From a bacterium (GTDB taxonomy: Bacteria; Electryoneota; Electryoneia; Electryoneales; Electryoneaceae), in the NCBI GenBank assembly GCA_963669175.1, contig OY769902.1:2912001-2976000 (forward strand): a DNA stretch of 64,000 bases. The letters are read 5' to 3'. The notes below the pieces were generated by a model. It saw only the letters and a program-made list of their open reading frames with translations, did no database searches and was not told the origin of the DNA. Position 1 is the stretch's first letter; each line of letters opens with the position of its first letter. Of the stretch, positions 19,685 to 32,031 are shown piece after piece. The position numbers and the translations under genes are program-made.

Positions 19685-20934
19685 TCCTGTTCCCTTTTAA
19701 TCTTTGCACCCAGCGCCAGAAGCTTGGCTTCCAGGTTTTCATAGCCACGATCCAGGTGATAAATACGTCGTATATCGGTGCGTCCCTGTGCGGCCAGAGC
19801 AGCGATTACAAGACAGGCAGAGGCACGCAGGTCTGTGGACATTACTGTCGCGCCTTGAAGCCTGTCCGGCCCACGTACTCGTGCGGTATTGTCTTTCATG
19901 GAAATCCGTCCACCTAGGCGCATCAGTTCTGCAACATGGGTGAAGCGGTCTGGGTAGATAGTGTCGGTGATCAAGGAGACTCCGCTTGCTCCGGTCATCA
20001 GCGCGATCCACTGCGCCTGCATATCTGTAGGAAAGCCGGGATAAACGGCCGTTTCCACATCTACCGAACGAAGTTCGCCGTCACAGGTAACTTGAATGCC
20101 TTCCGTAGTCACAATAAACTTGATTCCCGCTTCAGCCGCCTTGGCCAGCACCATGGTAAGGTGTTCAGGCTCCGCGCCCTTGAGCATGATGTCACCGCCA
20201 GTCAGGCCCGCAGCAACAAGATAGGTGCCCGCCTCGATCCGGTCCGGAATGACACGGCAGTTCACCGGTTCCAGCGAGTCCACGCCCTGAATGGTCAGGG
20301 TTGAACTCTTTTCACCGTCAATCTTCGCGCCCATTTTGTTCAGGACACGGACCAGGTTGGTAATTTCCGGTTCACGCGCCACATTCTCCAGTACCGTTTC
20401 ACCTCTGGCTTTCACTGCCGCCAGAATGATATTCACCGTAGCGCCAACGGAAGGGAAAGGGAGGACATAGTGTGCGCCGTGCATATCTTCAGCGCTTGCT
20501 ATGATATAGCCCGATTCCAGCTCGACCTTTGCCCCGAGCGCTTCCAGTCCTTTCAGGTGAATATCTACCGGACGCGGTCCCCAGGCGCAGCCACCGGGCA
20601 GCGATACTTTCGCTTTGCCCAACCGTCCGAGTAAACCGCCCAACATGTAAAAGGAGGCGCGCATGGTACGGACCAGCTCGTAGGGCGCTTCGGCATTCTC
20701 GATTTTTGTGGCGTCGATATCAACGCTATGATCATGAAATGTGACTTTGACACCGGTATGCTCGATAACCCGTCCCATGGTATGAACATCAACCAGTTGT
20801 GGGATATTCTCGACAGTTGACTTGCCTTCAGCCAGTAATGCCGCGGCCATCAGGGGGAGGGTTGCGTTTTTAGAGCCTGCGATAGCGACGTCGCCCTGGA
20901 GGGGGACTCCACCTTCAATGATCAGCTTATCCAT
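19681..20934 (-). CDS. murA: UDP-N-acetylglucosamine 1-carboxyvinyltransferase
   Basis: GSKNA, MRAS, catalytic LPGGCAWGPRPVD, GFPTDMQAQ, DLRA and HLDRGYE. Confidence 0.97.
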   Translation of the reverse strand: MDKLIIEGGVPLQGDVAIAGSKNATLPLMAAALLAEGKSTVENIPQLVDVHTMGRVIEHTGVKVTFHDHSVDIDATKIENAEAPYELVRTMRASFYMLGGLLGRLGKAKVSLPGGCAWGPRPVDIHLKGLEALGAKVELESGYIIASAEDMHGAHYVLPFPSVGATVNIILAAVKARGETVLENVAREPEITNLVRVLNKMGAKIDGEKSSTLTIQGVDSLEPVNCRVIPDRIEAGTYLVAAGLTGGDIMLKGAEPEHLTMVLAKAAEAGIKFIVTTEGIQVTCDGELRSVDVETAVYPGFPTDMQAQWIALMTGASGVSLITDTIYPDRFTHVAELMRLGGRISMKDNTARVRGPDRLQGATVMSTDLRASACLVIAALAAQGRTDIRRIYHLDRGYENLEAKLLALGAKIKREQE

Positions 20935-21090
20935 AAGGATGTATCCGGTTTCGGTTGTTCGTGACTAACCTGCCCAAGATAAAGCAACTGGCGCAAAAAG
21001 CCAAAGGGATAAGAAGGTGAAATTCAGCGTATCGGTGGTGATACAATATGGCATCAGGATATGATAGTTATGCCCATATCAGATATTCCC

Positions 21091-21335
21091 GTTCTCGATA
21101 TTATCACTTTATAATGGAGATTGCAGGGAAAAGGGGACGGGATCCTTTTCCTCGCGCTTAGGCAGAAGATTTCTGAAGTATTCCTGAAAAAGGAAACTGT
21201 CCCCTTTTCCTTGTAATTCCTGCCTGCTCTTAAGGAAAAAGGGTACAGCCACCTTTCCCGGTCCAATCTCACACCGGGAAGGCTTTGCCCCAGGGAACGG
21301 AAACTGTCCCCTTTTTCCATCTCCTTTATTCCAAC
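21091..21335. repeat. REP-like repeat family B copy 1
   Basis: ATGGAGATTG..GGAAAAGGGGACGGGATCCTTTTCC...AAAAGGAAACTGTCCCCTTTTCC...; recurs at 43013 and 51745. Confidence 0.85.
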
Positions 21336-21355
21336 GGTATCAGCATTCTCGCTGT

Positions 21356-21476
21356 CGTCAGGTCACAACGTGATGCCAGATGACGATAAATCGTACGGAA
21401 TAGCAGGTATGAGCCGGACAAGTGTCTGAAATTACGGAGAAGAACAAGAAATAGGCATCACGTCAAGATCTGACGA
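21356..21476. repeat. Inverted-repeat doublet downstream of recN
   Basis: TCGTCAGGTCACAACGTGATGCC pairs with GGCATCACGTCAAGATCTGACGA about 75 bp later. Confidence 0.6.
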
Positions 21477-21525
21477 AACGTGCTCGTCGAGAATATGCAC
21501 AAATACTTGTGAGCAGCCAATAATC

Positions 21526-23178
21526 TCAATGTTGTTCTGTGATCAGCTCACGTGCGCCAGCGCGTGCGGCGTCTGTCAGTTCCTCGCCACCGACAAGACG
21601 TGCGATTTCATCGACCTGGTCATCGCTTCCCACATCCACCGGACGTGCGAGAACAGTTGTCGAATTGACTGCCTGCTGCTTTTCAATAACAAGATGGTGA
21701 TCGGCGAGGCTGGCGATCTGAGGGAGATGGGTGACCAGCAGAACCTGGCGGTGAGTAGACAGCTCTTTCAGGCGCAATCCAACCTGTCGTGCTGTTCGGC
21801 CGGAAATACCCGTATCAATCTCATCGAAAATTAAGGCCGGTGGTGTTTTTTCTGCGGGACTGAGGCTTTTCAATAATAACATGATGCGTGATAGTTCGCC
21901 TCCGCTGGCGACATCCTGAACTGGTTTTACCGGCTGGCCGGGATTGAAGGAAATATGGAATTCGTACCTGTCCCAACCCGCAGGCCCGACTCGATGCTTC
22001 CCGGTTTTTGGAAAACGGACCAATTCCCCCTCTTCCGGGCATTGCATCAACTTGAACTCCGGTTTGGCAACACCGACAGTTTTCAGGCCTTCACGAATCC
22101 GTGCCGTTATTGAGGTGACAGCTTCTGATCGTTTTTCCGAGATGTGAAGCAACCGTGATTCCCAGTCTGCGATGTGATCGTTGATCTGTTTCTCGATACT
22201 CTTCTTGTCACGTTCCAATTGTTCACTGCCACTTTGCCGTTGCTGGAGGTTTTGCCAGTTTTCCAGCAAGGTTTCCATGCTGCCGCCGTACTTCCGAATC
22301 AGGCGAGACAGATGCCCTCTTCGGTCACGCAGCTCCTCCAGGCGTTCCGGGTCCAGCTCAACATCATTCTGCATGTGGTCCAGGTCACGGCTGGCCTCCT
22401 GCATCGCAGTCAACGCCTGTTCCAGGAGCTCAAGGGGCGGCGAGATGCGGTCATCAATACGAGTGAGTCGTTTCAATTCCTGGGCTACGGAACCGAGCCG
22501 CATGATGATAGTATCGTCGCCCTGATCCAGCCCTTCAACCGCTTGTGCCAGTCCAAGCAGCAACGATTCCGCGCCTTCCAGTCTACGGATCTCCGCATCA
22601 AGAACTGTCGCTTCATTTTCTTCCGGTTGAAACTCTTCGATCTCCTGTAATTGGAATGATGCCAGCTCTTCTGTTTCACGTAAACGCTGAAGCTTTGCTT
22701 CAAGAAAACGTAATTTTTCACGCAACGTCTGCCATCGTTGAAAATCTGTTCCAACCTCTGCCACTTGTACGGTCAGTCCTGCCAGCCTGTCAAGGTGATG
22801 CAGATGTGTGACAGGATCGAGCAGGGTTGCGCCTTCGCGTTGTGCAGTCAGGTCAACACGGATTTCTGCGGAGTCACGAAGTTCAGTTATGGTACAGGGG
22901 GAGCCGTTGATCCAGGCTTTGCTGCGGCCATCCGGCCTGATTTCACGTTTAAGAATGAAAGGTTCTGAATCAGGATTTCGAAATTCAGCTTCAATAATTG
23001 CAGGATTTTGCTCCACCATGTTCGGTTTGGCACGAGCGCCCAAAGCCAGAGAAATCGCCCCCACAAGGATTGATTTTCCCGCCCCGGTCTCACCGGTGAT
23101 GATATTGAGCCCTGTACCGAATGTCAGTTCGATATCCTTGATCAGGGCGAAATCGGTGATGTGCAGGCGCGTCAGCAT
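21526..23178 (-). CDS. recN: DNA repair protein RecN
   Basis: Walker A TGETGAGKS, coiled coil, ASGGELSR signature, IFDEIDTG and VTHLPQIA. Confidence 0.96.
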   Translation of the reverse strand: MLTRLHITDFALIKDIELTFGTGLNIITGETGAGKSILVGAISLALGARAKPNMVEQNPAIIEAEFRNPDSEPFILKREIRPDGRSKAWINGSPCTITELRDSAEIRVDLTAQREGATLLDPVTHLHHLDRLAGLTVQVAEVGTDFQRWQTLREKLRFLEAKLQRLRETEELASFQLQEIEEFQPEENEATVLDAEIRRLEGAESLLLGLAQAVEGLDQGDDTIIMRLGSVAQELKRLTRIDDRISPPLELLEQALTAMQEASRDLDHMQNDVELDPERLEELRDRRGHLSRLIRKYGGSMETLLENWQNLQQRQSGSEQLERDKKSIEKQINDHIADWESRLLHISEKRSEAVTSITARIREGLKTVGVAKPEFKLMQCPEEGELVRFPKTGKHRVGPAGWDRYEFHISFNPGQPVKPVQDVASGGELSRIMLLLKSLSPAEKTPPALIFDEIDTGISGRTARQVGLRLKELSTHRQVLLVTHLPQIASLADHHLVIEKQQAVNSTTVLARPVDVGSDDQVDEIARLVGGEELTDAARAGARELITEQH

Positions 23179-23311
23179 TTTTATCCCATTCCGTTTCGAA
23201 ACACGAGGGAATATACAATTTTTATTGAAAGCTTCCCAAGGTGTACCGGTCCAAAGAAAAACACCCCTGCACCGGGAGGCGCAAGGGTGTGGATGAAACG
23301 AAAAGTTTAGC

Positions 23312-23911
23312 TTATCCGCTGTATTCCTGGTAATCCGCGATCATGGCTTCCATCTGCTTATGAGCAGCTTGCAAGTCATTGGAATAGATACGAATGTCAT
23401 GATACAGACCATAGCTGTCCTTTACATGGTCTTTCAGAGTCGCTTCACGACGGAAGCCCAGCCGCTTGGCCATACGAATAGCGCCATGCTGCCCTGTTTG
23501 CAAATATATATACAGTTTTTCAATACCTACCGAATCCGCATATGGAATAGACTCTTCCATCAGGTGAGTCGCGATGCCGAGATTGCGATAGTCCGGATGG
23601 GTTACTGTTCTGAATTCAGCCGTATGATGCAACCATTTTGCTCGATTTCGAACCAGGATCATCGAAGAAATGATCTTGTCCTCATGCCAACCGGCAAGAC
23701 GATAAACAAATTCGTCGCTGATCTGACGTTTGATCCTCTGTTCATAAAAAGGATCGGAAAAGTCATCCTGCAACAGCATGCGATCGCTCTTGGGAAGTAC
23801 TTCATGAAGCTCTTTCAGTGCAGGGATATCCTGGGCACGCAAGGGTTTCACGGTGATTTCACAATCGTGACGGCACATGATTTTCTTTGGGAAACGACGC
23901 TTCGTAACCAT
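23312..23911 (-). CDS. GNAT-family N-acetyltransferase
   Basis: HPDYRNLGIAT motif A and LGFRREATLKDHV. Putative promoter TTGACA-18-TACCAT (23940-23969); terminator ~23257-23290. Confidence 0.8.
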   Translation of the reverse strand: MVTKRRFPKKIMCRHDCEITVKPLRAQDIPALKELHEVLPKSDRMLLQDDFSDPFYEQRIKRQISDEFVYRLAGWHEDKIISSMILVRNRAKWLHHTAEFRTVTHPDYRNLGIATHLMEESIPYADSVGIEKLYIYLQTGQHGAIRMAKRLGFRREATLKDHVKDSYGLYHDIRIYSNDLQAAHKQMEAMIADYQEYSG

Positions 23912-24397
23912 CTATCCTCCCGTGGTTAGTATCCAAATAATGGTACGACTTAACCATTGGACCTGTCAAGCAAAGAACACGAGGAATCAGGTTGGGGGTG
24001 AGCCGCAAACCAGTATTGGAAGTCAATTCAAACGAGTTGCTCGTGGCTTGTTACCTGATAACCGGTCAAGTGTGAGTGTTTCAGTATGGAACACACCGGG
24101 AGACAGAATGAGTAAAAATTCACATTTGTTTCAATATTGAACAGTATTGCATATCAGAAATGTGAGCTCTGTTCCAGAATTGTTAAGAATAAGGATTCAG
24201 TATTAGTATACTGTGAGGGGTAAGATTTTATATTTTTAATAATCATTAGGTTATGTGAAGGAGTGTCTCTCGGAGGGCATTTTCGGAATGTGATTTGCAA
24301 AATTATGGCATAGAAGCAGCGAACTGGATCAAAGTGATACAGTAAGCGTAAAAACAGACATTGAATTCTATCCATAAACAACCTGAGGGGGTCCAAG

Positions 24398-24742
24398 ATG
24401 AGCAAGAGCATTGATCTGAACAAGGTACAGATGCCGAACCTTTCGGACATCGAAGATGATCTGAAGCGTTGGGAAGACCAGATTGCCAACTGGGCGAAGC
24501 GTATTCCCTGGTCACAACCGACACAGCGCAAAGATGCAATGATCACGGCCAAATTCCTGCGCAAACTGGTGGCGGAAGCCTGGATTCATACACTGGCGGC
24601 TAAGACACGTGGTTCCGATCCCATGGATCATTCAGCCTTTCGTGCACGTCGCATTCATCGTCAACTGAACCAGTACGGTCCGGTTCTGGCCGAACGGATG
24701 GAAGCACGTCTGCCGCAGTCCGTACCGAGCATCGCAGCGTAA
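24398..24742 (+). CDS. Hypothetical protein (114 aa)
   Basis: RBS GAGGGG, host-like codon use, followed by terminator CGCCCCG-AATTC-CGGGGCG-TTTTT (24769-24792). Confidence 0.65.
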   Translation: MSKSIDLNKVQMPNLSDIEDDLKRWEDQIANWAKRIPWSQPTQRKDAMITAKFLRKLVAEAWIHTLAAKTRGSDPMDHSAFRARRIHRQLNQYGPVLAERMEARLPQSVPSIAA

Positions 24743-24835
24743 GTTCTCGCTGACATCGAAGTTTTCCACGCCCCGAATTCCGGGGCGTTTTTACTTGGGG
24801 CAGTGGGCTTTGTACAGTCCTGAACAGCGATGATT

Positions 24836-25870
24836 TCAATCCGACCCAAACCGTGACTGGAGCACCAGAATTTCCAGCCGGTCGAACTGGTCACGCATCT
24901 CGGCGCTGGAGCGAAGTTCAGTCCTGAATGCACGTCGCAAGTGGGCAATGGCGCTGCCCGTACTGTTCAAGCGATCGCCCAGGCCGGCGATACCGGATTC
25001 ATCCAGGGCATAACGTGAGGCCAGTTCCACGAGGAATTTCCGTCCCGGATGACGACTGCGAGCTTTGGTCAGGGAGATTTGTGTCGTATCAAAGAAGTTG
25101 GCGACCTGTTTCAGAATAAGACCGAAGCGTTCATCGCCGGATAAATCCGTGGTTAGTTTCGACAGTTCAGCTTCCTGAGGGCGTAGTTTTACGGCACGGC
25201 GTCCCTTTACGATACTCATGTAATGGGTAACAAAATCGGCGCTGCCGAACAGGGCCATGCCATGTACGTGGTCCAGTACGTCACCGTTCCGTTTCTTCAT
25301 ACCTTCGATAATGTAATCTGCGAACAGGTTGACCGGGTCTTTGTCCGGTAGCGTGAATCGTTGTAACACCGTTTCCCGATCAAACCCGGGCGGCGGGGCA
25401 ATGGAACCGATGAAGATGGGGTAGGAGGTCCAACGGTTGGTGGAGATTTCGCCCCATTTCCGCCCTTCGCTCTGGTTGCTCCAGTGATGACCGATGATTG
25501 GCGCCAGGTGAACACGCTGCAGGATGGGGAAGAAAGGCGCGCCCTCTTCGATCAGGATTTCGCGATGACGGTCATGGATCAACGGACGCGCACGTTCGGA
25601 ACGTGCCCGCAACCGGTTGAAAAAACCGGCCAAGGTCCGGTGTACAAAGCCGGATAATGGATCAGGCCCGCCACGAACAAACAGCAGCGCGGACGTCTGC
25701 ATCAGGGCAAACGCGTAAATCCGTACGTCAGCGGAAAAAGCCGATTCACCAAGCGACAGGAGAAACAGGGCGCGTTCCTCTTCATTTGCGAAAAGGACTT
25801 CACCCGCTTTTGCCTGTACCTGGATCAGGTAGGTCCCACCGGGGACATGAATGCGAACTGGTCTTGCCAT
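24836..25870 (-). CDS. Catalytically inactivated RAYT/Y1 (IS200-like HUH) transposase homolog with DnaA-C-like C-terminal helical domain
   Basis: MARPVRI..PG.TY, LF..EEER..FL, YAFALM, HLAP, RWTSY and LFGSADFV scaffold matches RAYTs, but the HUH His pair and catalytic Tyr are absent. Confidence 0.7.
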   Translation of the reverse strand: MARPVRIHVPGGTYLIQVQAKAGEVLFANEEERALFLLSLGESAFSADVRIYAFALMQTSALLFVRGGPDPLSGFVHRTLAGFFNRLRARSERARPLIHDRHREILIEEGAPFFPILQRVHLAPIIGHHWSNQSEGRKWGEISTNRWTSYPIFIGSIAPPPGFDRETVLQRFTLPDKDPVNLFADYIIEGMKKRNGDVLDHVHGMALFGSADFVTHYMSIVKGRRAVKLRPQEAELSKLTTDLSGDERFGLILKQVANFFDTTQISLTKARSRHPGRKFLVELASRYALDESGIAGLGDRLNSTGSAIAHLRRAFRTELRSSAEMRDQFDRLEILVLQSRFGSD

Positions 25871-25925
25871 GAGACGAAAGGTAGCCGATCAGTTGGTCCT
25901 GAGCAAGCGTGAACAACAGCGTAAA

Positions 25926-27074
25926 TCATTCCTTCCCGGTGATCTCAAACATCTTTTCCAGGGCGATAAGGGAATAATGCTTGACATCGTCATCCACTTC
26001 GATTTTGTGCTGCAGCCTGCCATTCAGCAGGGCTTTTAAACTGTCACGTAACGCTTCCGGTGTAATCCGGAACATGGTAGAACAGAGACAGGCGTACGGA
26101 GCCAGGCTGTATACTTCAACTCCACGTGGTTTGTGATCAATTGCCAGACGTGAAACCAGGTTATGCTCTGTGCCTACCGCCCACTTACTGCCCGGTTCAG
26201 CCTGCTTCAGCATCTTGGTGATGTACCCGGTCGAACCGGCGTAATCGGCTTGCTGCACCACCTCGAACATACATTCCGGGTGTACCAGGATATTGATATC
26301 CGCAAAACGCTTGCGCCAGTAAACAGCATGCTGCGGCTGGAAATGCTGATGCACCGAACACCAGCCGCGCCACAGGATGACCTTCGCATTACGGATCTGC
26401 TCTTCGGTATTGCCGCCCAGGTATTGATCCGGATCCCACAAAATCATGTCGTCAAGGGGAATGCCAAGCTTGTAACTGGTATTGCGACCAAGATGTTGAT
26501 CAGGGAAGAAGAAGATTTTCTCAGTACGTTCCAGCCCCCATTTGACCACCTTGTCGGCGTTGGCGGAGGTGCAAATGGTGCCGCCGTTTTTACCGACATG
26601 GGCCTTAACATCTGCCGTAGAATTGATGTAGGTGATCGGAGTGACTGTTGAAACATCAATCACAGTGGAAAGCTGACGCCAGGCTTCGGTAACCTCCTCG
26701 ACAGGCGCCATATCTGCCATGGTACACCCGGCGCGAAGATCCGGCAACACGACCGGAACATCCCTGGGTGTGAGCATATCGGCTGTCTCTGCCATGAAAT
26801 GAACACCCAGGAAAATCACATTCTTGACCTGTTCCAATGCTGCGGCATGCTGGCTCAAGGCAAGTGAATCTCCAATGACATCAGCGAACTGAATCACCTC
26901 GGCGCGCTGGTAGGCATGCCCCAGGATGATAGTTTCCGGTCCTGCCTGTTTGCGAAGATCAGCTATCTCTTCCAGTAAGGCACGTTCAACCGGGGGATCG
27001 CCCATGTATTTGATTTCATTGATCGGTTGCTCCGGATTCCAGCGTATTTCAAGGCGTTCACTATCTGAAGACAT
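25926..27074 (-). CDS. nadA: Quinolinate synthase
   Basis: ILGHAYQ, GDSL.LS, GVHFMAETA, AGCTMAD, YINS, CTSANA, PDQHLGRN, WRGWCSVH, HPEC and CSTM. Confidence 0.96.
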   Translation of the reverse strand: MSSDSERLEIRWNPEQPINEIKYMGDPPVERALLEEIADLRKQAGPETIILGHAYQRAEVIQFADVIGDSLALSQHAAALEQVKNVIFLGVHFMAETADMLTPRDVPVVLPDLRAGCTMADMAPVEEVTEAWRQLSTVIDVSTVTPITYINSTADVKAHVGKNGGTICTSANADKVVKWGLERTEKIFFFPDQHLGRNTSYKLGIPLDDMILWDPDQYLGGNTEEQIRNAKVILWRGWCSVHQHFQPQHAVYWRKRFADINILVHPECMFEVVQQADYAGSTGYITKMLKQAEPGSKWAVGTEHNLVSRLAIDHKPRGVEVYSLAPYACLCSTMFRITPEALRDSLKALLNGRLQHKIEVDDDVKHYSLIALEKMFEITGKE

Positions 27075-27265
27075 GAGCAGACTCCATGTGAAAAATGGTT
27101 CAACCTGTTGAGTGTAAAAGAGTAAGCTTGAATATAAGGCACTGCGGCGGGGAAGGTAACCACAAGTTCAGGAACGAAGAGCGTGAATTTTGAATTGTAA
27201 ATGACAGGCTCTTCGTGGGAATGAATACCTCGTGCTCGTGACATATTCGGGCTGAAAAAGCGAGC

Positions 27266-27296
27266 AAAAATATACCCCGGCAAAATGCCGGGGTAA
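27266..27296 (-). terminator. Intrinsic terminator of the 72-aa gene
   Basis: TACCCCGGCA-AAA-TGCCGGGGTA hairpin with an adjacent A-run. Confidence 0.7.
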
Positions 27297-27371
27297 GCGA
27301 TCTGAAGTCACTCTTCAAATCACAGGTATACTGGTACCAGGAAAAAAAACCAACACGTATGTGTGTGTCAG

Positions 27372-27590
27372 TTATTCCGTGTCCGTGGCCGCTGCGGCTG
27401 CTAATGCCTGGGCTTCAGGGCTGATGCTTACGCTGTCGGACGGGTTCAGACCCGTACCTGTCGCGCCAGCAGCCATACCGGCGAAAACCTGGGCGCCACC
27501 GCCATGTACTTCACCACGAAGTGCGGCACGGAACATTTCTGCATCGCTCATGCCCTGGGGGGCCGTCGGTGCGCTCATGCCACCTTCCAT
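27372..27590 (-). CDS. Small Ala/Gly-rich hypothetical protein with DxVxISxxA motif
   Basis: RBS AAGGAG, sigma28-like promoter upstream and terminator downstream. Confidence 0.65.
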   Translation of the reverse strand: MEGGMSAPTAPQGMSDAEMFRAALRGEVHGGGAQVFAGMAAGATGTGLNPSDSVSISPEAQALAAAAATDTE

Positions 27591-27641
27591 TTTGCACTCC
27601 TTTCGTTTACTGCACTAAGACAGAAGTCTACTCATTATTTC

Positions 27642-27669
27642 CTATCGGCAGGTTGACGTCTGCTCTTTA
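27642..27669 (-). promoter_or_regulatory. Putative sigma28 (FliA) promoter
   Basis: Minus strand TAAA-N16-GCCGATAG (consensus TAAA-N15-GCCGATAA). Confidence 0.6.
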
Positions 27670-28137
27670 ACAATAACAATTGGAAACAGTGATTTTCTCT
27701 CTAAGTTACTTCCATTGGAGAGGTTACGATTTGGCTCGGAGAGTGTATTTGCTTCGATTACTTCAAATATTCGTAAGACTTTACTCCAGGAATACTTAAA
27801 GGAGGCGGGGTGTTTTGGGCTAAATAATTCTATTTCGGCATTCACTTTATTTTTGCTCTCGGAGTGCTCCTGTTTAGTCGCCTGGCATGCCTCCAGAACA
27901 TGAAATCGAGACTTTCGAGAAATGTGCTCGAACGGTTTTTCGAGTGGCATTACAGCCGTCTGTATTCTATCTTTGCTGGTGTTGTGAAAACCAGTAGGAT
28001 TTGTAAATATTTGTAAAAATGTAAAATAAGCTAAGTTGTTGTACTTCTTATTGATACTGGCAAGCTGTTGCTTTATCAGGAATTCCGGGGAGAATTCTTC
28101 GCTTCACCGTTGACCAACTGCATGTCGAGGGGCATTC

Positions 28138-31100
28138 ATGGATTTTGTTCACCTGCATAACCACACAGATTATAGTTTTCTTGACGGGGCGACGAAAGTC
28201 AAGGATCTGACACGGAAAGCCAAAGAGCTTGGCATGCCGGCCGTAGCGTTAACCGATCACGGCAACCTGTGTGGCGCGGTTGAGTTTTATCGAGAAGCGC
28301 AGAAAAATGAGATCAAACCGATCATCGGCGCTGAATTATACCTCACAGAGGGATCTCGTTTTGATAAAGGGCCGGATGTATACGGGAAAAGGCGGCCACG
28401 TTTTCACCTGCTTGCCTTAGCCAAGAACCAGATTGGTTACAAAAACCTGATCAAACTTTCATCTGCCGGTTATCTCGAGGGATTTTATCATAAACCCCGC
28501 ATCGACCTGGAGTACCTGGAGCAGCATCGTGAAGGACTGATCGTGACCACCGGTTGCCTTCAGGGAATTATCCCGCAGGCTTTCCTGAAGCGTTCGGAGA
28601 AAGAGGCAATTGAGCTGGCCGGCTGGTTCAATGAACTGTTCGGGGATGATTTTTATTTCGAGTTGCAGGATCATGGCATTGACGAGCAGCACCAGGTCAA
28701 CCGTTTCATCATTGACCTGGCGAAGAAGATGAACAAGAAGCTCATCGCCACCAACGATGTTCACTACCTGGAAAAAGGGCACGCCGATCCGCATGATATC
28801 CTGCTCTGTGTCCAGACTCGAAGTGATCGAAATGATACCAACCGCTTCAAGTTCCACGGCGATGAATTCTATCTGAAAACACCGGAGGAGATGGCAGCAA
28901 TATTCAAGGATTACCCGGAAGCGTTGACCAATACCGTTGAAATCGCTGAGAAGTGTGACGTCCATTTCAACTTCAAAGACAAACATTTTCCCTATTATCC
29001 GCTTCCCCCGGAAGCGAAAGAAAAAACGCATGCGGAATACCTGTATGAACTATGTGAAGCCGGGTTGCCAAAACGCTATGGCGACAAGGTTACACCGGAA
29101 ATCAGACAGCGTCTTGAAACCGAGATGGGCATTATCAAGCAGAAGCAACTGGCGGACTATTTCCTGATCGTTCGTGACTTCATCATCCATGCCAAGAACC
29201 AGGGAATCCCAGTGGGGCCGGGACGTGGTAGCGCTGCGGGAAGCCTGGTGAGTTACCTGATCGAGATTACAAATATTGACCCGATTCGTTACGAGTTGCT
29301 GTTCGAACGGTTTATCAATCCCGAACGTGAGAGTTATCCTGATATTGATGTTGACTTTGCTGACACCCGTCGAGCCGAGGTCATCGAATATGTCAAGCAG
29401 AAGTATGGTCAGGAGAATGTCTGCCAGATCATGACTTTCGGCCGGATGCTGAGTAAGGGCGTGGTGCGAGATGTGGGGCGTGTCATGCAGATTCCGTTGC
29501 CGGAAGTTGACGCTATCGCCAAGCTCATTCCTGAAGGGCCGAAGGTCACCCTGAAGAGCGCCCTGGAAGATAGCCAGGAACTAAGCGATCTGATAAACAG
29601 CCGTGGTGAATACAAAGAGCTGATGAAGAGCGCCCTGGTCCTGGAGGGGACAATCCGGAATGCCGGGGTTCATGCTGCGGGGGTAGTGATTACGCCTGAA
29701 CCGCTGAATGAACTGGTGCCGCTCTTCAAACCGCCGAACGGGGATGTTACTACCCAGTTTGATATGAAGCATGTGGAAATGATCGGCCTGTTGAAGGTGG
29801 ACTTCCTGGGACTTAAAACCCTGTCCATCCTGGAGAAGGCGGTCAACCTGATCAAACGGAAGGGAATTGATCTCGAGTTGGAGGATATTCCCATTGAGGA
29901 CAAGGAGACGTACGAACTCTTTGGCCGTGGGGATACCATCGGCATCTTCCAGTTTGAATCTGGCGGAATGCGTGAAAGCCTGAAGAAGTTGAAGCCGGAA
30001 CGCCTGGAAGACCTGACCGCAATGAACGCGCTGTATCGTCCCGGTCCGATGGAAAACATCGACACCTTCATTCGCAGGAAGCACGGCAAAGAGAAGATCA
30101 CGTATCTGCACCAGATGCTGGCCAGTATCCTGGATGAGACTTATGGCATTATCGTCTACCAGGAACAGGTCATGCAGATCGCCAACAAGCTTTCGAACAT
30201 GAGCCTTGGCCGAGCGGATGTGCTGCGCCGTGCGATGGGGAAGAAGAAGCAGGCACTCATGGATGAGATGAAGCCTGAGTTTGTTGAAGGCTGCGGACAG
30301 AATGGAATCAACGCGAAAACCGCCTCAGAAATCTGGGACTTGATTGAGAAGTTCGCGAAATACGGCTTCAACAAGTCTCACGCTGCAGGTTACGCTCTCG
30401 TCGCATACCAGACCGGCTTTTTGAAGACGCACTACCCGGCGGAGTTCATGGCGGCGAGTATGTCCACACGAAAAGACAACACGGAAGAAGTTGTCCTGTT
30501 CCTGGAAGAATGCAAACGGATGGGCGTGGACGTTTTACCGCCGGATGTAAACGAATCGGAAGAAGACTTCAGCGTGACCGAAGATGGAGCTGTCCGTTTC
30601 GGGATGGCTGCCATCAAGAATGTGGGCGGACCGGCTATACAGGCGATCATGGGGGAGCGTGAAACTCGTCAGCGTTTCCAGGATTTGTATGAACTCGCCG
30701 AGTGCGCGGTTTGTAGCCCGTTGATCAACCGTCGTGTTCTGGAGAACCTGATCCTGGCGGGAGCGTGTGACAGCCTGAACGGCCACCGTCAGCAACAACT
30801 TGCGGCCTTGGATCAGGCGCTCGCCTATGCCCACCAGTTAAAGCAGGAGAAGGCACAGGGGCAATTCAGCATGTTCGGGGAAGAGTGTGATGATGGCGTC
30901 GCTTTGCCACGTCCTGAAATGCCGGATGTGGAAGAAATGCCCGCCCATGAAAGATTGGCCGAGGAGAAGGCGCGGCTGGGCTTCTATTTCTCCGGGCATC
31001 CCCTGTTCAAGTACCGCCGTGAGATCGAGTCGTTCGGAACGATTGATGTTGCCAACCTCAGCAATGGCCACCCAGACCAGGAAGTACGGTTGGTCGGTAT

Positions 31101-31578
31101 CCTGGTTTCGGTCGAACGTCGCCAAACGAAAAAAGGCGATGTGATGGGCCGTGGCAAATTTGAGGACTTGTCCGGTGTTGTAGGCGTCGTCATTTTCCCG
31201 AAAACCTTTGATAGTATTAAAGATCGCCTGGTGAAAGATGTTCCTGTCCTGATGACTGGGAAACTCCAGAAGCGGGATGACAATTGCGAAATCATCGTGG
31301 ATGATGTTCAGACCCTTGAAGATGCTATGGAAAAGCTGACACGGATGATCCGGGTGTCTATCGATGAGGAGATCGCGGGGAAAGACTATTTGCAACTGGA
31401 AAACATCATTCGTGAGAATCCCGGACCGGCACGCTTGCAGATCTGGTTCCACCGTGAAGATGGCACCTGTTTCCGGACAGTATCGGGACGCTATTCCCTC
31501 GCGCCACGGTTTGATTCCATTGCGGAATTACGTGATGTGATCGGGGAAGAGGCGGTTACGATCATGGCTATGGGGTAG
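28138..31578 (+). CDS. dnaE: DNA polymerase III alpha subunit (replicative DnaE1)
   Basis: Intact PHP HLHNHTDYS/TDHG, GRGSAAGS, PDIDVD, YGFNKSH, clamp motif QFSMF, OB fold and C-terminal domain. Confidence 0.97.
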   Translation: MDFVHLHNHTDYSFLDGATKVKDLTRKAKELGMPAVALTDHGNLCGAVEFYREAQKNEIKPIIGAELYLTEGSRFDKGPDVYGKRRPRFHLLALAKNQIGYKNLIKLSSAGYLEGFYHKPRIDLEYLEQHREGLIVTTGCLQGIIPQAFLKRSEKEAIELAGWFNELFGDDFYFELQDHGIDEQHQVNRFIIDLAKKMNKKLIATNDVHYLEKGHADPHDILLCVQTRSDRNDTNRFKFHGDEFYLKTPEEMAAIFKDYPEALTNTVEIAEKCDVHFNFKDKHFPYYPLPPEAKEKTHAEYLYELCEAGLPKRYGDKVTPEIRQRLETEMGIIKQKQLADYFLIVRDFIIHAKNQGIPVGPGRGSAAGSLVSYLIEITNIDPIRYELLFERFINPERESYPDIDVDFADTRRAEVIEYVKQKYGQENVCQIMTFGRMLSKGVVRDVGRVMQIPLPEVDAIAKLIPEGPKVTLKSALEDSQELSDLINSRGEYKELMKSALVLEGTIRNAGVHAAGVVITPEPLNELVPLFKPPNGDVTTQFDMKHVEMIGLLKVDFLGLKTLSILEKAVNLIKRKGIDLELEDIPIEDKETYELFGRGDTIGIFQFESGGMRESLKKLKPERLEDLTAMNALYRPGPMENIDTFIRRKHGKEKITYLHQMLASILDETYGIIVYQEQVMQIANKLSNMSLGRADVLRRAMGKKKQALMDEMKPEFVEGCGQNGINAKTASEIWDLIEKFAKYGFNKSHAAGYALVAYQTGFLKTHYPAEFMAASMSTRKDNTEEVVLFLEECKRMGVDVLPPDVNESEEDFSVTEDGAVRFGMAAIKNVGGPAIQAIMGERETRQRFQDLYELAECAVCSPLINRRVLENLILAGACDSLNGHRQQQLAALDQALAYAHQLKQEKAQGQFSMFGEECDDGVALPRPEMPDVEEMPAHERLAEEKARLGFYFSGHPLFKYRREIESFGTIDVANLSNGHPDQEVRLVGILVSVERRQTKKGDVMGRGKFEDLSGVVGVVIFPKTFDSIKDRLVKDVPVLMTGKLQKRDDNCEIIVDDVQTLEDAMEKLTRMIRVSIDEEIAGKDYLQLENIIRENPGPARLQIWFHREDGTCFRTVSGRYSLAPRFDSIAELRDVIGEEAVTIMAMG

Positions 31579-31581
31579 CCG

Positions 31582-32031
31582 ATGCGGGTGTTGCTGCAAC
31601 GAGTGTCTGAAGCATCGGTAACCGTTAACGATAACCTGGTATCCAGCATCGGCCCAGGTCTTCTGTTGCTAGTCGGAGTACGTGAGGGCGATGGCGAGCC
31701 TGAAGCACAATGGCTGGCAAATAAAATCGCAGGCTTGCGTGTGTTCGAAGATGAAGAGGATAAACTGAATCTGTCCATTCAGGATGTCGGTGGCGAAATT
31801 CTGTCAGTCAGCCAGTTTACCCTCTATGGTGACACGCGCAAAGGTAAACGACCTTCCTTCTCCCATGCGGCGCATCCTTCCCTTGCAGAACCCCTTTGCG
31901 CACAATTCGCGGATATGCTGCGGAAACAGGGGATCACGGTTCGCGAAGGGGTGTTCGGCGCCATGATGAAGATCGCCCTGATCAACGATGGCCCGGTTAC
32001 ACTGATGCTGGAAAAAGAAGCCGTCAGGTAG
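31582..32031 (+). CDS. dtd: D-aminoacyl-tRNA deacylase
   Basis: [18 protein letters not shown] and NDGPVT. Confidence 0.96.

Follow-up and report, generated by a model that had tools for sequence, protein, structure and literature searches.

RAYT proteins, also called TnpA_REP, are the textbook 'domesticated' transposases of bacteria; to our knowledge, every member described so far retains its catalytic residues and is believed still to move repetitive extragenic palindromic (REP) sequences. Here we analysed a bacterial DNA stretch of 64,000 nucleotides (positions 2,912,001 to 2,976,000 of contig OY769902.1; hereafter the window) and, within it, a gene that we call X. X occupies positions 24836-25870 on the minus strand, starts with ATG and encodes a catalytically dead, TIRYT-like protein of 344 amino acids (aa); residue numbers throughout are those of X. 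The case goes beyond RAYT domestication: the chemistry is predicted to be abolished, no repeats are associated with the gene, its inheritance is strictly vertical and it is strongly constrained. As far as we know, these traits characterise DNA-binding proteins that eukaryotes derived from transposases, and have rarely been documented in bacteria.

Proteins of ~330 aa that join a Y1 domain to a Bac_DnaA_C or helix-turn-helix (HTH) domain have been described as TIRYT (Di Nocera 2013, PMC3733652) and as subclass 2.1 of TnpA_REP (Quentin 2018, PMC6006769). In the sections of the two papers used here, the HUH motif and the catalytic tyrosine are conserved in all members (PMC3733652, PMC6006769), and TIRYT genes are flanked by terminal inverted repeats (TIRs), often with the motif GGGGWSAS (PMC3733652). 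X resembles these proteins in length (about 320-340 aa), in its two-domain architecture and in profile homology over its full length, and it shares with them a MARP.R N-terminus (X starts MARPVRIHVP), GR, H.(N)P, WSS and L.G...F motifs, and a DnaA-IV-like C-terminus. In contrast to the members covered by those sections, it has lost both the HUH motif and the tyrosine, is not flanked by TIRs or REPs, and is single-copy and vertically inherited, on a stem of 1.45 changes per column in the tree described below.

The E. coli TnpA_REP (a RAYT; 4ER8) is the best structural match of X aa 1-200 and is likewise a single-copy 'domesticated' host gene. Its sequence is 12-14% identical to that of X. It differs from X in being flanked by REPs, in lacking a DnaA-like domain and in being catalytically active, with Y115F abolishing the activity in the part of the study used here; its DNA contacts are placed there in beta1, near beta4 and in the C-terminal portion (PMC8266576). 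Domain IV of DnaA (3PVP, 1J1V) has the fold of X aa 247-341. The signature residues of E. coli DnaA that contact the DnaA box are R399, H439 and D433/H434/T435. In the profile alignment, the R399 and H439 positions are R271 and H310 in X, whereas D433/H434/T435 correspond to a gap, Gly and Ser, and X has no AAA+ domain. Because the D433/H434/T435 equivalents are absent, specificity for the DnaA box would not be expected of X, and another target would be. We found no catalytically dead RAYT or TIRYT in the accessible parts of the literature on RAYT/TIRYT and on domesticated or inactive HUH transposases; one may be mentioned elsewhere, for example in supplements.

Parentage, fold and catalytic residues of X

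A word-indexed search for close relatives among 5.8 billion clusters returned 22 sequences besides X (43-74% identity, 249-355 aa), giving a set of 23 for the X clade. Distant relatives were collected by an exhaustive HMMER search over 1.84 billion representatives at E <= 0.001, which gave 1067 matches, those outside the close clade being mostly 310-345 aa long at 21-34% identity. The Pfam domain Y1_Tnp was found in 35 of the 36 distant relatives scanned, and Bac_DnaA_C matched 25 of the 36 at E <= 0.01, 10 of them at gathering score. The X-clade profile aligned end to end with 31 catalytically intact relatives over 336 columns (hhalign probability 100%, E 1.8e-53), and on this profile evidence the homology of X to transposases with Y1_Tnp and Bac_DnaA_C domains is far above chance.

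The X clade escapes Pfam, and its members are labelled 'hypothetical protein' wherever public records name them. A Pfam scan of X gave nothing even at E <= 10; Y1_Tnp (PF01797) was matched by one of the 23 clade members (E 0.13), and the gathering threshold of Bac_DnaA_C (PF08299) was passed by none of the 23 (best E 0.14). The NCBIfam model REP_Tyr_transpos (NF047646) scored X at E 0.011 and 15.6 bits, below its cut-off of 80. Compared with E. coli DnaA domain IV (1j1v), the clade profile gave E 8.6e-4 and the profile of the wider family E 3.4e-11. As judged from these profiles, the parent of X is the ~330-aa group with Y1_Tnp and Bac_DnaA_C domains and not the classical RAYT of ~150 aa. An earlier reading of the window, made from the sequence alone, had described X as a RAYT; the protein is indeed RAYT-like, but its parentage has to be moved to the TIRYT/subclass 2.1 group.

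An AlphaFold2 model of X, made from the 23-sequence alignment, had a predicted local distance difference test (pLDDT) score of 85.4 and a predicted template modelling (pTM) score of 0.71, with aa 221-250 at pLDDT 62-74. The best PDB match by Foldseek was 4er8_A, the E. coli TnpA_REP with a REP hairpin (E 2.1e-4, target TM 0.72), and the DNA-binding domain of DnaA matched as 3pvp_B with a target TM of 0.83. In VIA-align, aa 1-202 superposed on 4er8_A with Z 14.5 and a root-mean-square deviation (rmsd) of 2.8 A (157 of 165 residues aligned), and the TnpA proteins of IS608 and ISDra2 scored Z 8-9.7 to X; aa 247-341 superposed on 3pvp_A with Z 14.5 and an rmsd of 1.6 A (93 of 96 residues) and on 1j1v_A with Z 13.5. 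X is thus modelled with both an HUH-nuclease/IS200-like fold and the fold of DnaA domain IV. The sequence-only reading, which had seen a RAYT-like HUH protein of full length whose C-terminus resembles DnaA domain IV and had proposed this structure search, is upheld on the point. On the minus strand, the N-terminal HUH/Y1-transposase-fold domain (aa 1-202) lies at 25265-25870 and the C-terminal DnaA-domain-IV-like HTH domain (aa 247-341) at 24848-25132. Between them, at 25133-25264, is a linker (aa 203-246) that contains the superfamily-wide L.G...F, with a stretch behind it that is variable and of lower confidence, as seen in the alignment, pLDDT and the ratio of nonsynonymous to synonymous changes (dN/dS).

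The motifs that had been quoted for this frame (YLIQVQA, LMQTSALL, QRVHLAP, W.SY and [I/L].G...F) are all present, as Y14-L-I-Q-V-Q-A20, L56-M-Q-T-S60-A-L62-L63, Q118-R119-V-H-L-A-P124, W147-T-S-Y150 and L207-F-G209-S-A-D-F213. We aligned X with 35 homologues carrying Y1_Tnp and DnaA_C (32 catalytically intact by their motif columns and 3 degenerate, P0043 and P0050 among the latter, with P0057 keeping both features), and the motifs of X fell on YH..RG, LM.NH.HL and RYIHLNP. The histidines of HUH correspond to S60 and L62, the nucleophilic tyrosine to R119 and the asparagine to A123. On the minus strand, the former HUH motif, Ser60-Ala61-Leu62, is encoded at 25685-25693 and the former tyrosine codon, now Arg119 and invariant in the clade, at 25514-25516, with the codons of both, and those of V120 and H121, read by hand. 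The 31 intact relatives show no variation at H15, G20, H60, H62, Y119 and N123, and the X clade has L, A/S/V, S/N, L, R and A/S at these columns. A second alignment, of 169 sequences, combined the X clade with 144 distant representatives. In it, both HUH histidines were absent (S/N-x-L) from all 22 clade members readable at these columns, the tyrosine column held Arg in all 24 readable members, and the asparagine column held Ala or Ser. The two alignments bear out the claim that all catalytic residues were lost. Since other residues stand in place of the metal-binding histidine pair, the asparagine ligand and the nucleophilic tyrosine, canonical HUH cleavage and joining should be impossible. 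X is not to be filed as a transposase, because it fails the catalytic features of TIRYT/RAYT proteins, the model cut-offs and the association with repeats.

Catalytic residues were also missing elsewhere in the superfamily. Of the 144 distant representatives, 113 had HUH and Tyr, 15 had neither, 12 lacked only the histidine pair (1 of them through truncation) and 4 lacked only the tyrosine, these four keeping HUH with His or Ala at the Tyr column. HUH, Tyr or both were therefore lost in about one in five, in a list that is biased, as the query itself is dead. A FastTree tree was made from 126 rows, namely 10 clade members and 116 distant representatives of 295-380 aa, with 28 distant and 15 clade sequences left out. 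The X clade formed one group with 100% local support on its long stem, and the 13 rows in which both features were lost required at least 9 changes. Provisionally, catalytic losses across the superfamily appear to have been independent, a view taken from FastTree only, with several long branches flagged. A second clade with Y1 and DnaA_C domains, unrelated to X, comprises P0043, P0050 and P0062, which were grouped at 99% local support. They have the same architecture as X and both HUH and Tyr replaced (D-V-D/H, S-A-E/W and Q-V-K/W), in lineages different from that of the X clade, and catalytic loss in the superfamily may be recurrent.

Conservation, immobility and expression signals

The distribution of X was followed by a profile search (E <= 1e-5) of 79 genomes of the phylum, which belong to nine GTDB families. 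One full-length, stop-free copy was found in each of the 16 genomes of the family of the window's genome (11 genera, this genome included). The other eight families, represented by 63 genomes, yielded no copy. The only extra matches across the 79 genomes were five short Y1 open reading frames (ORFs; 124-232 aa) in three genomes, and in the window's genome, which has a single X, a second weak match was a DnaA-like C-terminus inside a frame of 481 aa. A full-length intact paralogue of X was not found in any of the 79 genomes, so that X is unlikely to repress an active transposase in the same genome. With 23 sequences, all from one GTDB family, X has a narrow distribution, and the case is unusually clean.

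nadA lies immediately upstream of X in 14 of the 16 family genomes, and the order nadA, X, convergent orf114, GNAT acetyltransferase and recN is kept wherever the contig is long enough. In the window the gap between the end of nadA and the start of X is 55 nucleotides (nt). In the other two genomes X and nadA are on separate contigs, and the relocated copies of X are divergent from a prolyl-tRNA synthetase gene or a 4-hydroxyphenylpyruvate-dioxygenase-like gene. One sister genome (G034:C29:436811-440956) has a second nadA on a different contig, 50% identical to the nadA of the window.

For the closest pair, which is from the same genus and has 85% amino-acid identity, dN/dS of X was 0.066 overall; by region it was 0.063 in the N-domain, 0.22 in the linker and 0.023 in the C-domain. 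In the pair from the window's own genus, the N-domain had dN 0.143 and dS 3.4. The 23-sequence clade alignment has 33 invariant columns, which are densest at aa 100-150, that is, in the former active-site strand and the helices behind it (D100, R101, R103, R119, P124, G127, W130, S134, E135, R137, G140, W147 and S149). Dead and intact members share R3, R6, R101, P124 and G209, and W147, S149, R277 and F213 are nearly invariant over both. X is conserved, and given its distribution, synteny, selection and within-protein conservation as read from these sequences, simple decay is excluded. The sequence-only reading had named an absence of conserved orthologues as what would speak for decay, and had proposed synteny with nadA and dN/dS in related genomes as checks; the orthologues exist, the synteny is largely kept and selection is purifying.

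X is no longer part of a mobile element. No copy of the 13 high-copy repeat cores of the genome lies within 1.5 kb of it, and no inverted repeat brackets it, its flanks being nadA and a convergent conserved ORF; the position directly downstream of nadA without flanking REPs, as described earlier, is thus correct. Several intact Y1 genes of the genome, unlike X, are flanked by their own repeat family. The ten other Y1 genes of the genome encode proteins of 143-260 aa without a DnaA-like domain, and all but one have HUH and Tyr. The one that departs is a RAYT-like ORF of 260 aa (G000:C1:1916482-1917315) with H-V-N in place of HUH and with Tyr and NP kept, and it may be heading to inactivation. 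A classical REPtron is found at G000:C1:2242307-2242885, where the palindromic repeat CCGACAGCAAGCAGTCGG occurs seven times within 1.5 kb, on both sides of a 184-aa RAYT with intact HUH and Tyr. Besides this RAYT, two other Y1 genes have copies of a repeat family of their own at their flanks.

X also has a promoter-like element of its own, at 25878-25906 on the minus strand, which consists of TTGCTC (25901-25906), a spacer of 17 nt and TACCTT (25878-25883), followed after 7 nt by the ATG. The -35 element begins 19 nt past the nadA stop. Upstream regions were compared by eye for 15 sequences, two of them duplicates, and a layout of CTTG, exactly 17 nt, TAnnTT, 5-8 nt and ATG was present in all 13 distinct sequences, and likewise at both relocated copies. 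A generic sigma-70 scan misses this site. Terminator-like hairpins lie between nadA and the X promoter at several orthologous loci. The -35 and -10 elements are the sole common feature of the X upstream regions, as a ACCTCGCGGAG-like stretch occurs in few loci only. These features suggest that X would be transcribed independently, from a leaderless or near-leaderless message.

Proposed function and its alternatives

We consider it likely that X is a non-catalytic, transposase-derived DNA-binding protein of the host. A TIRYT-type transposase, with a Y1 HUH domain and a DnaA-IV-like HTH, would have been fixed in the ancestor of one bacterial family and inherited vertically since then, with both DNA-binding modules under strong purifying selection. 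The modules retained would be the HUH-fold sheet, with the stretch of the beta4 area and the helices past the former tyrosine helix, and the DnaA-IV-like HTH. Through these two modules X may bind DNA without cutting it, in a sequence- or structure-specific manner, and may serve in regulation or as a factor associated with the chromosome, with expression driven by its own promoter immediately ahead of the ATG. Both the loss of nuclease activity and the binding of DNA are what we infer; the stretch of X that matches the DNA-contact region of TnpA_REP is its most conserved part. Exaptation, which the sequence-only reading had favoured over decay, is the best reading of a gene kept in all 16 family genomes, in conserved order and at low dN/dS. 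X is a clean test case: a single gene, confined to one family, for which the clear prediction is that it binds DNA and does not cleave it.

Several points weigh against this proposal. No DNA target was found for X among the GGGACAG repeats, GGGGWSAS, upstream operators and nadA leaders. The invariant D100 and E135, with the near-invariant H102 and H121, could in principle form a new metal site. dS is saturated in most pairs, and a single pair from one genus carries most of the weight of the dN/dS figure. Since every carrier belongs to one family, the kept synteny shows stability and not function. An RNA metatranscriptome run gave contigs over the neighbouring orf114 only, which speaks neither way, as contigs cannot show absence; among the four sequencing runs compared, out of five located, this run and a small run of unknown kind together had contigs on orf114 and nadA and none on X, and the genome's own sequencing run covers the whole region.

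A more specific form of the proposal is rather improbable. X may keep the recognition of hairpin or motif single-stranded DNA by the HUH fold, with R119 contacting the phosphate that Tyr once attacked and the DnaA-IV-like domain anchoring the duplex, and may act at replication forks or at other exposed single-stranded DNA, as the founding example of such a bacterial host factor. If this is true, the repeated catalytic loss (at least 9 events among the 126 tree rows) would point to a path by which bacteria in general turn transposases into DNA-binding proteins, in parallel with the eukaryotic transposase-derived transcription factors.

It is unlikely that X still works as an enzyme, cutting or processing nucleic acid through a new active site in the HUH fold, for example D100/H102/H121/E135 together with some other nucleophile. 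Conservation in X peaks in the former active-site region, which contains clade-specific charged residues that are invariant or nearly so (D100, H102, R103, R119, E135 and R137), and the four distant relatives with HUH and a His or Ala at the Tyr column raise the possibility of variant chemistries in the superfamily. However, all three canonical metal ligands and the tyrosine were replaced together, the former catalytic helix has no invariant Tyr, and in the RRM-like strand order, as it follows from the secondary-structure order of the model, beta4 would not be adjacent to the HUH strand.

We likewise doubt that X is a transcriptional regulator of nadA or of NAD biosynthesis, which would explain why the two genes are adjacent. 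The HTH domain, the frequent position of nadA directly upstream and a conserved stretch with the palindrome GGTTGAACC, shared by some nadA leaders, are in its favour. Against it, X has its own promoter and lies on another contig than nadA in two genomes, the leader motif is absent from at least 4 leaders of the family, nadA of this type occurs without X in five genomes of two other families (f4 and f5), and gene order inside one family is weak evidence. The nadA leader ACAACAGGTTGAACC...TTTCACATGG is conserved in a subset of sister genomes; a 9-mer search with one mismatch, and a comparison with genomes in which X is unlinked or missing, likewise showed the GGTTGAACC leader to be limited to a subset, a result that speaks neither for nor against nadA regulation. 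A functional tie of X to nadA is not supported, in view of the conserved promoter of X and its position elsewhere in two of the 16 genomes.

The sequence-only reading had further suggested that X acts on the abundant GGGACAG/CTGTCCC REP-like clusters of this genome, which we now regard as very improbable. The genome is rich in REP-like repeats, with at least 13 cores, each present in 73-108 copies. Inverted doublets, such as those at 21120-21320 of the window, downstream of recN, are made up of two related families, GGAAAAGGGGACGGGATCC... with 89 copies and GGAAAAGGGGACAGTTTCC... with 80; these families are virtually absent from the 15 sister genomes. Both families bear GGGGACAG, which is enriched in the window (7 observed vs 1.67 expected) and fits the GGGGWSAS motif reported for TIRYT TIRs in the sections of that paper used here (PMC3733652), and neither adjoins any of the 10 Y1 genes of the genome. 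With 13 repeat families, though, one chance fit to a degenerate 8-mer is, by our estimate, not unlikely. We counted AAAAGGGGACRG and GGGGWSAS, the latter against its reversed control, across the 79 phylum genomes. AAAAGGGGACRG has 221 copies in this genome and 0-4 in each of the 15 other family genomes (4 in the genome of the same genus, 1 in a 2-contig assembly), all of which keep X with conserved DNA-binding residues. As these residues are conserved family-wide and the repeat is genome-specific, the repeat is not a conserved target of X, and GGGACAG-type repeats were rejected in that role; X may still interact with them secondarily in this genome. The ancestral TIR motif GGGGWSAS was rejected as well, since it had no family-specific excess over the reversed control (ratios of 0.9-2.5 in the family vs ~0.7-1.9 elsewhere).

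Finally, we give almost no credence to X being a decaying transposase relic with a simple loss of function, since the absence of all catalytic residues and of any Pfam match is set against an intact single copy in 16 genomes of 11 genera, the low dN/dS, 33 invariant columns among 23 sequences and a conserved promoter, while the 43-74% identity of the orthologues excludes recent transfers of one sequence.

Surroundings of X in the window

Upstream of X on the minus strand is nadA, for quinolinate synthase (25926-27074; Pfam NadA, E 6.9e-92). On the other side, orf114, a conserved ORF of 114 aa, is convergent with X at 24398-24742 on the plus strand, with 60-62% identity across sister loci. No match was found for orf114 in Pfam or PADLOC, and PADLOC gave no defence-system match for X. 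A palindromic G+C-rich terminator-like hairpin lies between the two genes at 24768-24788 (plus strand), without a following T-run on the strand of X.

The divergent gap between nadA and dnaE (27075-28137) spans ~1 kb, in which a convincing ORF is absent, and contains the nadA leader and two minus-strand terminator-like hairpins at 27273-27295 and 27348-27373. An Rfam scan of window positions 20000-32000 gave a single sub-threshold anti-hemB match (23.5 bits vs 49.5), which sits within this gap, and no NAD riboswitch.

Environmental sequencing added two observations. In marine metagenome contigs from a relative that is 90-95% alike, 48 nt within window positions 24791-24840 are replaced by 1429 other letters; the stretch lies between the 3' end of X and the terminator of orf114, so that other DNA has been inserted or substituted immediately behind X. 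In a wetland metatranscriptome, two contigs cover orf114 at 95-99% likeness.

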